Source of the DNA: a virus
Taxonomy: Duplodnaviria; Heunggongvirae; Uroviricota; Caudoviricetes
Virus record (IMG/VR): IMGVR_UViG_2713896789_000009
Strand: one strand, 5' to 3'
DNA length: 11,118 nt
A program made the translations under genes and the position numbers. Below, piece after piece: positions 431 through 2,581 of this stretch (positions within the stretch are counted from its first letter, which is position 1; the number at the start of each line of letters is the position of its first letter). The notes below the pieces were generated by a model. That model ran no database searches and was not told where the DNA came from. It saw nothing but the letters and a program-made list of their open reading frames with translations.

Positions 431-1522
431 ATGCTTGAGCAAACAGTAAAAAACATCAATTCACGCTTTGGCTGGCGCAACACCCGTAAGCTTCTTGGTT
501 CATCACTGGGTGTAACGGCCCAAGGATTACCCCTTTTTATTGAACGTGTAAATAGTGTAGTTCAGCATAATCCCGACCTAAAAGACAGAATCGACGATTT
601 CTGGAAAGGTTTAATTTTTAGCGGGAATCGATTACTTTCTATTTATAGAATCACCGATGAAGACGTAGCAAAATTACAAACAATTTTCACAAATCAGAAA
701 AAGGACAATAGCCCCTTCTCAGAAAAATACCCAACTCCTTTATCCAGAGAGGAGCTGTTAGTTGCTGATACTGAGCTGCATTTTGCTGAACTACGTCAAG
801 ATATCATTCGTGATAAACAAATTGACACTGCTGTTTTTTTATCCAAAGCGTATTACACTGAAGTGATAGAGCTTGACCCAACACATCTTAGCGATGCGGG
901 TATGGAATTACGTGCTAATGGTGGAGAAATAAAATGCAAAACACGCCAAGTCACGCAATGCTTTAATACCATCATGCTAATGCCTGCAGAAAAAATATTA
1001 ATTCTTACGATTGATTTATCTATCCTTCCAAGAAGTGAATCACAGCCTCAACAATACCTTGTGGCTAAATTTATAAAAAAAGAAGCTGGCGTTATTTTAA
1101 ACAATCCTCTTGAATTATTTGGTTCAATACAAGATCTTTACGAAAAAGTAGATGGCAGAATTTCTCATGTATCTTTTATCACCTCAGATGGCAATACAAG
1201 TTCTTTAAAACTCAAACCAAGTCAAAAGTGTTTGCGTCAAGATGTTTACCATCATAGTGGAGAGTCCGCAAGCCCAATATTGACAAAGTTTAAGTTGGGA
1301 AAAATTTGGGATTTACCACAAAGTTCTTCACATATTTTATCAGTAGAGTTAATATTACCAAGAAAAAGGACAATGCTTGATAATCCTAGAATTAGGTTGC
1401 ATGAAGCAATTGCGAAGAACTGTAACAACATTGATTCGATTATATTTATTGTTGAAAAAATATTGGATTCTGTTAAGTCCTGTGAAGAGAAAAGAAGAGC
1501 GAGATCATCAGGCCATAAATGA
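431..1522 (+). CDS. Hypothetical protein, gene A of an AT-rich three-gene cassette (363 aa); no recognisable motif
   Basis: Long ORF. The ATG at 431 sits 6 nt after an AAGGAAG Shine-Dalgarno (418-424); the GTG at 425 used by the ORF track abuts the SD and is unlikely. Its stop overlaps the start of gene B (ATGA at 1519-1522). No Walker A or HTH motif seen by eye. Confidence 0.7.
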   Translation: MLEQTVKNINSRFGWRNTRKLLGSSLGVTAQGLPLFIERVNSVVQHNPDLKDRIDDFWKGLIFSGNRLLSIYRITDEDVAKLQTIFTNQKKDNSPFSEKYPTPLSREELLVADTELHFAELRQDIIRDKQIDTAVFLSKAYYTEVIELDPTHLSDAGMELRANGGEIKCKTRQVTQCFNTIMLMPAEKILILTIDLSILPRSESQPQQYLVAKFIKKEAGVILNNPLELFGSIQDLYEKVDGRISHVSFITSDGNTSSLKLKPSQKCLRQDVYHHSGESASPILTKFKLGKIWDLPQSSSHILSVELILPRKRTMLDNPRIRLHEAIAKNCNNIDSIIFIVEKILDSVKSCEEKRRARSSGHK

Positions 1523-1947
1523 AAAAGAGTATATATCACGACATTATCACGCAAATAGAGCAGGATTTTAATGATCCTGTTCGCAGTGTGTGTCGTGATC
1601 TTTTTCTTTTTCTGGTTAGTAAAGATGCTAAAAATATCAATCACTTTACATACAAAACCCTTATCAATGGTTTAACCTATCTAACTGATACGAAAGATGA
1701 CTATATCCTGCTAATAAAAGCAACTGATTATTTATCTAGCTATAAAGCACATCTATTGGATATGCATTTTCAATACATTGATAATTTAACGGAAGAACCA
1801 ATACCAGTTGAAGATGATCTTATTTCCTATGCTTTAGACACAGGAAGTTTTTACCATCCAGAAACTGGCGAATTGGTTGATAATTTTAGCCAGTATCTTT
1901 ATCCATACTTTACTCCTTCGAGTCTTTTGGAGAGTCTGCATGAGTGA
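1519..1947 (+). CDS. Hypothetical small acidic protein, gene B of the cassette (142 aa)
   Basis: ORF whose ATG overlaps the stop of gene A (ATGA) and whose stop overlaps the start of gene C, indicating translational coupling. Same AT-rich composition as gene A. Confidence 0.65.
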   Translation: MKKSIYHDIITQIEQDFNDPVRSVCRDLFLFLVSKDAKNINHFTYKTLINGLTYLTDTKDDYILLIKATDYLSSYKAHLLDMHFQYIDNLTEEPIPVEDDLISYALDTGSFYHPETGELVDNFSQYLYPYFTPSSLLESLHE

Positions 1948-2581
1948 TGTAAACATCTGTACTGCAGACCTTCAATCATTAATTAGAATGGATCCTGAAT
2001 TTAGGGGAATGGTTCAAAGAAAATTAGCTGCAGACAAAAATATTTTTGTAAAGCAACTCTATGAAGATTTAGACGACGCTATTCAGAATTTAGAAAATGA
2101 CAAACACTTCTATCAAGATGCTAAGTGGGGAGAGGACGAGCTAACAGCGTCGATCAAAAATTTCCTGAAAGGTAGGTTTTATGATGTTGAACATGATACT
2201 CAACATGGCGGTCACGTTGATTTATTAGTTAAACATCAATTCGGAAAATTCGAATGGATCGGTGAAGCAAAATTATGGAGAGGCCCCAAATCTATTCATA
2301 ATGGCTGGATTCAGCTAACCGAACGTTACGGCACGGGTACGTCACGTGACGATCATGGAGGAATTCTAATTTATATAAAGTCTGACAAATCAGCAGTAAA
2401 ATTCAATGAATGGAAAGAATTTTTCTCTACGACCGTTTCGGACGCAGAAATTGAAGCGGAAGGCTCTCCCCTCCGCTTTAAGAGTATCACAAAGCATCCA
2501 GCAACAGCGCTTCCATATCATGTAAGACACATGGGAGTATCCTTATACCATTACACTGGTAAAAAAACCGCTGACTCTTAA
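1940..2581 (+). CDS. Predicted PD-(D/E)xK-fold nuclease, gene C of the cassette (213 aa from the ATG at 1940)
   Basis: ATG at 1940 follows GGAGAG (1927-1932) and overlaps the stop of gene B (ATGAGTGA). The protein contains E65/E67 ... HVD94LLV ... EWIGE109AK111LW, the classic acidic-helix / D / ExK arrangement of restriction-endonuclease-like nucleases. The ORF track's longer start at 1877 would overlap gene B by about 70 nt and is less likely. Confidence 0.7.
   Translation: MSDVNICTADLQSLIRMDPEFRGMVQRKLAADKNIFVKQLYEDLDDAIQNLENDKHFYQDAKWGEDELTASIKNFLKGRFYDVEHDTQHGGHVDLLVKHQFGKFEWIGEAKLWRGPKSIHNGWIQLTERYGTGTSRDDHGGILIYIKSDKSAVKFNEWKEFFSTTVSDAEIEAEGSPLRFKSITKHPATALPYHVRHMGVSLYHYTGKKTADS

Follow-up and report, generated by a model that had tools for sequence, protein, structure and literature searches.

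The DNA analysed here (the window; 11,118 nucleotides of a Caudoviricetes genome, IMG/VR record IMGVR_UViG_2713896789_000009) carries at positions 431–2581 a cassette of three genes, here called A, B and C, which a preliminary description had proposed to be an undescribed phage-defence operon ending in a nuclease. The locus raises the questions of whether such a cassette acts against phages and whether it is new. By sequence comparison, the cassette is a diverged member of DS-21, an experimentally validated defence family, and its own defence function is deduced from that homologue. The preliminary description is thus right on function and out of date on novelty.

Relationship to the DS-21 anti-phage operon

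DS-21 (working name TOXO) is an anti-phage operon reported in the DefensePredictor study (DeWeirdt et al., Science 2026; PMC13092281; bioRxiv 10.1101/2025.01.08.631726, January 2025), and the match was found via peptide strings in the supplementary tables of that study, in the sheet 'hit_proteins' (Table S8). As listed there, the operon originates from E. coli assembly GCF_003334085.1 as an ECOR allele, is marked as replicated, and encodes WP_001532221.1 (365 amino acids, aa), WP_021552536.1 (140 aa) and WP_001557682.1 (211 aa) (PMC13092281). BLASTP comparisons showed that protein A shares 51% identity with DS-21A over 359 aa (8e-140), B shares 54% with DS-21B over 136 aa (2e-48), and C shares 60% with DS-21C over 208 aa (6e-93). 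The two operons agree in gene order, in gene sizes (365/140/211 aa in DS-21 and 363/142/213 aa in the window) and in the catalytic residues of C, and both lie in lambdoid prophages with their 3′ end against homologous Q genes. DS-21 is nevertheless a distinct allele, and its divergence from the window is too great for matching at the DNA level. The exact DS-21 operon was found in IMG/VR loci L040, L042, L043 and L049 of our collection.

According to supplementary Tables S6–S8 and S11, DS-21 was introduced into E. coli MG1655 on a low-copy plasmid under the control of its native promoter, where it gave a −log10 efficiency of plating of 4.48 on Bas1 and 2.0 on Bas11, and smaller plaques on Bas3, Bas9, Bas67 and T3 (PMC13092281). 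Phage protection from the native promoter was shown for this ECOR allele, and for the window allele it is predicted by sequence similarity. The phage-defence reading put forward earlier is in this way borne out by a homologue that protected MG1655 against Bas1 and Bas11. The claim that the system was undescribed did not hold, as DS-21 had already been reported and all three genes show clear homology to it, which settles the point as regards defence activity. The main text does not discuss DS-21, and the publication proposes no mechanism for it (PMC13092281).

The preliminary description could match the cassette to no named system, and the named-system libraries up to 2023 agree in that Pfam, NCBIfam and PADLOC 2023 failed to place A, B or C; the PADLOC run returned no named system and only a weak match of C to the candidate model PDC-S54. 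In PHROGs, A, B and C each belong to a family whose function is unknown. Nothing relevant came from literature searches by RefSeq accession, PHROG number, RdgC combined with defence, KwaB, and peptide strings in main texts.

Operon structure and base composition

Both the six-frame listing and the sequence confirmed the three tightly packed, co-directional plus-strand open reading frames (ORFs) of the preliminary description together with their overlaps. Gene A occupies 431–1522 (363 aa from the ATG at 431), gene B 1519–1947 (142 aa) and gene C 1940–2581 (213 aa). The A/B junction is an ATGA at 1519–1522 (4-nt overlap) and the B/C junction is ATGAGTGA at 1940–1947 (8-nt overlap). The frame of A is also open from an alternative GTG start at 425, but the ATG at 431 is favoured, since a Shine-Dalgarno sequence, AAGGAAG at 419–425, has the right spacing for it and the N-termini of A homologues agree with it. 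In RefSeq, C starts at an internal ATG at about 1988, giving a protein of 197 aa. The ATG at 1940, which overlaps the stop codon of B, is better supported, because a GGAG precedes it by 8 nt, the alignment of homologues shows conservation of the additional N-terminus, and the Salmonella and Yersinia homologues have gene calls with the same short B/C overlap.

The 5′ flank of the operon (338–430, plus strand), as judged from the sequence and from an upstream alignment of seven loci, contains the stretch GATAGTTTTTGCGTACGCACTA, which is conserved ahead of A in other subtypes, a candidate promoter and the Shine-Dalgarno sequence. The candidate promoter is weak (TTGCGT at 348–353 and TAAACT at 372–377, separated by 18 nt), and a scan for consensus promoters detected none on the plus strand ahead of A. 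We infer a promoter in this flank from the sequence.

The cassette has a G+C content of 36.5% (27–33% at third codon positions), compared with 49.6% for the replication genes at 3232–5660 and 46.8% for the whole of 3112–11118. The earlier proposal of AT-rich foreign cargo stands as far as this difference goes, but the adjoining Q-family gene, with 34.1% G+C, is as AT-rich as the cassette, and the low-GC block consists of A, B and C plus Q rather than of the cassette alone. The long ORFs in AT-rich DNA, together with a gene order that is constant in every related locus examined, place the three-gene unit far beyond chance. Taken together, the data support the view that the three genes are one intact operon carried as compositionally foreign prophage cargo.

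Conservation and distribution of the cassette

Relatives were gathered from a protein search, phage records, IMG/VR, GTDB genomes, which yielded three loci, and a contig look-up, and all ORFs of the collected loci were scored with hidden Markov models (HMMs) built from A, B and C. The genes were found in the order A-B-C, on one strand and abutting or overlapping, at every locus with enough upstream sequence (about 75 loci), and this order persists where identity has fallen to about 30% for C and to about 22% for A. B lies between A and C at every locus examined. Together with the coupled junctions, the constant order upholds the earlier statement that the three genes form one operon. A complete HMM search using the profile of A gave 497 clusters (at 50% identity) with E < 1e-3, in which every full-length match is about 350 aa long, so that no fusions of A to other domains were seen. 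A few viral contigs have A split into two ORFs beside an intact B and C (L019 5485–6581, L032 6487–7583 and L068 6443–7509), which may represent decay of the large subunit.

The carriers are diverse. In Salmonella lambdoid prophages the cassette lies between Q and the holin genes, in Stx1a-converting phages between Q and stx1A, and in a Yersinia prophage between tail genes and the gene of a MuF polyvalent protein. It is also present in Moraxella phage Mcat13, with its genes unannotated, in a Vibrio PM2-like (Vinavirales) element adjoining its integrase, among housekeeping genes in Acinetobacter and other chromosomes, and in a metagenomic defence island together with DUF1156/DUF499, HEPN-MNT, NERD and an integrase.

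A 2.4-kb segment at least 99% identical to the window was found in 14 of 5,426 complete E. coli genomes, among them the enteropathogenic E. coli (EPEC) O127:H6 strain E2348/69 and several Shiga toxin-producing E. coli (STEC), always on the chromosome and with all three genes annotated as 'hypothetical'. The context in E2348/69 is a dicB/DicF-type lambdoid prophage with the order replication genes, Q-family gene, cassette (on the opposite strand), hokD, DUF968, RusA, second Q, tRNAs and lysis genes. At the DNA level, at least three E. coli subtypes can be told apart, which occur in 14 (window type), 12 (DS-21 type) and 23 (Stx1a type) of the 5,426 genomes. The Stx1a subtype is represented by phage Stx1_499 (L008, 2019–5648), has a C protein 32.5% identical to that of the window, and many of its carrier genomes are O145. 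These findings assign to an experimentally validated defence family an uncharacterised operon that is present in E2348/69, the reference EPEC strain, and in STEC, O145 included, and the position of the third, more distant subtype directly beside stx1 in Stx1a phages makes it relevant to competition between Stx prophages and other phages.

Sequence and predicted structure of the three proteins

On the evidence of its predicted structure, C is a restriction-type PD-(D/E)xK nuclease. Without exception, 39 homologues have residues E65, D94, E109 and K111 as well as the motif QLxxRY (Q125-L-x-x-R-Y130). The catalytic residues fall on the predicted elements H65–78, E91–98 and E105–112, giving a complete PD-(D/E)xK signature with an acidic residue in helix 1, D in strand 2 and (D/E)xK in strand 3. 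The model has a restriction-endonuclease-like alpha/beta fold with matches to BamHI, McrC and HamA, the best structural matches being type II restriction enzymes and McrC. The nuclease signature D94/E109/K111 read from the sequence by the preliminary description is thereby corroborated both by conservation and by the modelled fold. For DS-21C, the supplementary tables report an HHpred match to DpnII-MboI-type PDDEXK (0.96) and, at the level of the domain only, similarity to the LmuA nuclease (PMC13092281).

Curated families contribute less. Scans of the window protein against Pfam and NCBIfam gave no match, and PDDEXK_9 was touched by only one of the 39 relatives (E 0.0098). The PADLOC candidate PDC-S54 matches the C core in 30 of the 39 relatives, and its weak match to the window protein covers positions 295–353 of the 410-position model. 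A search of PDB sequences with the C profile gave only spurious Rab GTPase matches (E ~0.008). With Lamassu LmuA, Hachiman HamA, PDC-S54 and McrC, C shares only the catalytic domain, and in contrast to the systems of those PD-(D/E)xK effectors the cassette has no SMC, helicase or GTPase partner; the PADLOC models for Lamassu did not match A, B, C or their relatives. Distant C homologues (P0069 and P0071–P0077) carry C-terminal Lys/Ala-rich tails resembling histone H1, and one of these matches Pfam HC2 (histone H1-like). Such tails are consistent with a DNA substrate.

Protein A is basic (isoelectric point, pI, 8.9), and its predicted model (pLDDT 85, pTM 0.83) comprises a helical bundle at the N-terminus, a pair of alpha/beta domains and, at the C-terminus, a long helix. 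The N-terminal helical region bears a SAP/HeH-like motif, in keeping with the HHpred result tabulated for DS-21A, where a SAP/HeH motif at residues 16–48 (probability 0.64) is the only hit given (PMC13092281). The modelled alpha/beta domains appear to resemble the fold of RdgC, the recombination-associated nucleoid protein (PF04381), which is known to bind DNA, and this link is structural only. A itself has no match in Pfam, NCBIfam, PADLOC or PDB sequences, and Pfam, including PF04381, gave nothing for A or for 54 diverse relatives. In hhalign comparisons the A profile reached a probability of 0.9% with E. coli RdgC and of 1.25% with a nine-member RdgC profile, and was negative with lambda RexA. 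BFVD matches of A include phage proteins labelled 'exonuclease' or 'recombination-associated', labels that phage RdgC homologues, which are common, often carry. The most conserved stretch of A, DGRIS..F.T.DGN.SSLKL....CLR.D.YHH.GE.A in residues 240–290, coincides with the lowest-confidence part of the model.

A thus differs from RdgC in that no relationship was found at the sequence level, in its additional N-terminal helical SAP/HeH-like region and in its long C-terminal helix, and RdgC is a stand-alone protein with no nuclease partner. The DefensePredictor supplements consulted do not mention RdgC in connection with DS-21 (PMC13092281). Compared with that publication, as far as it was available, and with the literature searched, the apparent RdgC-like fold of A, the constancy of the three-gene unit in about 75 loci and the recurrent opposite-strand placement at Q are new, and all three are starting points for the mechanism of a system described by its phenotype only.

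Protein B (PHROG 11490) is acidic (pI 4.6) and the fastest-diverging of the three. Scans against Pfam, NCBIfam and PADLOC gave nothing useful for it, while the tables list DUF5939 (0.94) and a winged helix (0.8) as HHpred hits of DS-21B (PMC13092281). Neither B nor C has a hydrophobic segment. A RexB-like membrane effector was rejected on the absence of transmembrane segments.

Proposed mechanism and alternative explanations

Our preferred reading, to which we give a probability of roughly 0.7, is that of a defence operon against phages belonging to the DS-21 family. The prophage would carry it as cargo and the lysogen would probably express it, with A as DNA-binding sensor, B as regulator and C as DNase effector. 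If the predicted structure of A is a guide, this protein would bind DNA through its SAP/HeH-like N-terminus and RdgC-like body and would recognise a DNA state peculiar to infected cells, for instance the ends of phage DNA or intermediates of replication or recombination. B, translationally coupled ahead of C, may hold, position, regulate or tether the nuclease, as a regulator, adaptor or inhibitor. On sensing, C would cut DNA and halt phage replication, either by direct cleavage of the phage DNA or by killing the cell.

By analogy, the arrangement recalls lambda RexAB, which is likewise prophage-encoded and follows a sensor-plus-effector logic. RexA binds DNA and appears to share a fold group (RdgC, IML3/CHL4) with the proposed sensor A, and the cassette may combine a sensor of the RdgC/RexA-type fold with an effector in which a soluble nuclease takes the place of the membrane protein RexB. 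The differences are that RexB is a polytopic membrane protein whereas the nuclease of the cassette is soluble, that PADLOC gave no RexAB match, and that A did not prove to be a RexA-homologous sensor.

The structural matches of C to type II restriction enzymes and McrC, the lack of a methyltransferase gene in the operon and the narrow, phage-specific protection by DS-21 would all fit a direct restriction complex without a methylase, of the type IV or McrBC-like kind, in which A recognises modified or structured DNA, C cleaves it and the host survives. We consider this unlikely, as scans of the family libraries detected neither a GTPase or ATPase nor a domain known to read DNA modifications. 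Bas1 and Bas11, moreover, are T1-like phages of the BASEL collection that are not known for heavy DNA modification. Such a complex would in any case be a variant mechanism within defence. A restriction-modification system proper was rejected, there being no methyltransferase.

Slightly less probable again is a toxin-antitoxin or addiction module of three parts by which the prophage is stabilised, with C as toxin, B as antitoxin and A as regulator or chaperone, and with phage protection as a side effect. A small acidic protein followed by a translationally coupled nuclease is the typical order of such modules, C resembles the CdiA-CT DNase toxin, whose partner is a small immunity protein, and the hok/sok toxin locus adjoins the cassette; the Qin prophage of E. 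coli K-12 has relBE at a comparable place. The phage-specific phenotype of DS-21, 10^4.5 from the native promoter, argues against this explanation, and so does A, which exceeds the other two in size and in breadth of conservation (497 clusters) and would be unusual as a mere accessory. The explanation also overlaps with defence by abortive infection.

That the cassette is a recombination or repair module of the phage's own lytic cycle, comparable to lambda Red, with C as exonuclease, B as an acidic, Gam-like inhibitor and A as an RdgC-like modulator of RecA, is very improbable and was rejected on its orientation, its non-phage contexts and the endonuclease-type matches of C, even though in size and charge the proteins are reminiscent of gam and exo, a QxxxY motif of C is like that of RecB-family nucleases, and RdgC homologues are common in phages.

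Placement at the Q gene and neighbouring genes

The preliminary description placed the cassette between the Q antiterminator and hok, and this location was verified on both sides. To the right lies a Q-family antiterminator gene (2578–3111, minus strand; PF06530, E 3.8e-31), regarded here as linked context and not as a component of the system. C and Q are convergent and their stop codons share the TTAA at 2578–2581. In about 50 of 75 loci a Q homologue in this convergent arrangement adjoins the 3′ end of C or overlaps it, and the adjacency also holds in subtypes whose C is just 30–35% identical; the loci with a Q homologue at the cassette are L001–L004, L008, L011, L014–L049 and L056–L067. A regulatory scan predicted no terminator between C and Q. 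To the left lie hokD, cut by the window edge, and the sok antisense RNA (1–254, minus strand; context only). The sok RNA maps to 79–254 on the minus strand (Rfam RF01794, 117 bits), and hokD, which is annotated in E2348/69, runs off the left end of the window.

An element upstream of A is conserved across subtypes (window 338–362; L043 6311–6400; L002 ~7830–7950; L008 ~3400–3480). In the DS-21 locus it contains a hairpin with a T-run on the late-gene strand, AAACCCGCCGTCGAGCGGGTTTTGTCATTT, and the DS-21, Salmonella and Stx1a loci have a minus-strand hairpin with a T-run in it, AAACCCGCC..GGCGGGTTTT. Judging from these features, the element is probably the Q-dependent late promoter region plus its terminator, in which case the cassette would lie between Q and the site at which Q acts. 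Where the other loci have this conserved, putative promoter and terminator element, the left flank of the window is hok/sok; only the A-proximal part (~338–362) is retained, and hok/sok replaces the remainder leftward.

With no terminator predicted between C and Q, early transcription through Q at induction would run antisense into the cassette. Such antisense read-through could silence the cassette and thereby spare the resident phage. A bolder and much more tentative extension of the defence reading, which we regard as possible but rather doubtful, is that operons of the DS-21 type form a widespread class of Rex-like exclusion systems armed with a nuclease, comprising about 500 clusters at 50% identity. 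In these, an A protein with an RdgC/RexA fold and a SAP-like head would sense phage DNA or replication intermediates and free the DNase by way of its acidic partner, and the enterobacterial lambdoid copies, wedged in opposite orientation between Q and the presumed late promoter, would be silenced by read-through from Q at induction.

The prophage of E2348/69 has two different Q genes (L001 6076–6765 and 11279–11800). The first adjoins the cassette, and the second comes after hokD, DUF968 and RusA and immediately ahead of the tRNA and lysis genes, which suggests a mosaic junction at the cassette.

Some minor features of the window were also noted. The DicF small RNA was identified at 8148–8199 (Rfam RF00039, 75.8 bits) and marks a dicB/DicF (Qin/Kim-like) prophage; in E2348/69, dicB is located just beyond DicF. 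Positions 9454–9503 are a run of 50 N (masked or unresolved), which breaks the ORFs called there. On the minus strand at 3536–3790, an 84-aa ORF is intact in the window, while the E2348/69 counterpart has an internal stop and is annotated as a pseudogene.

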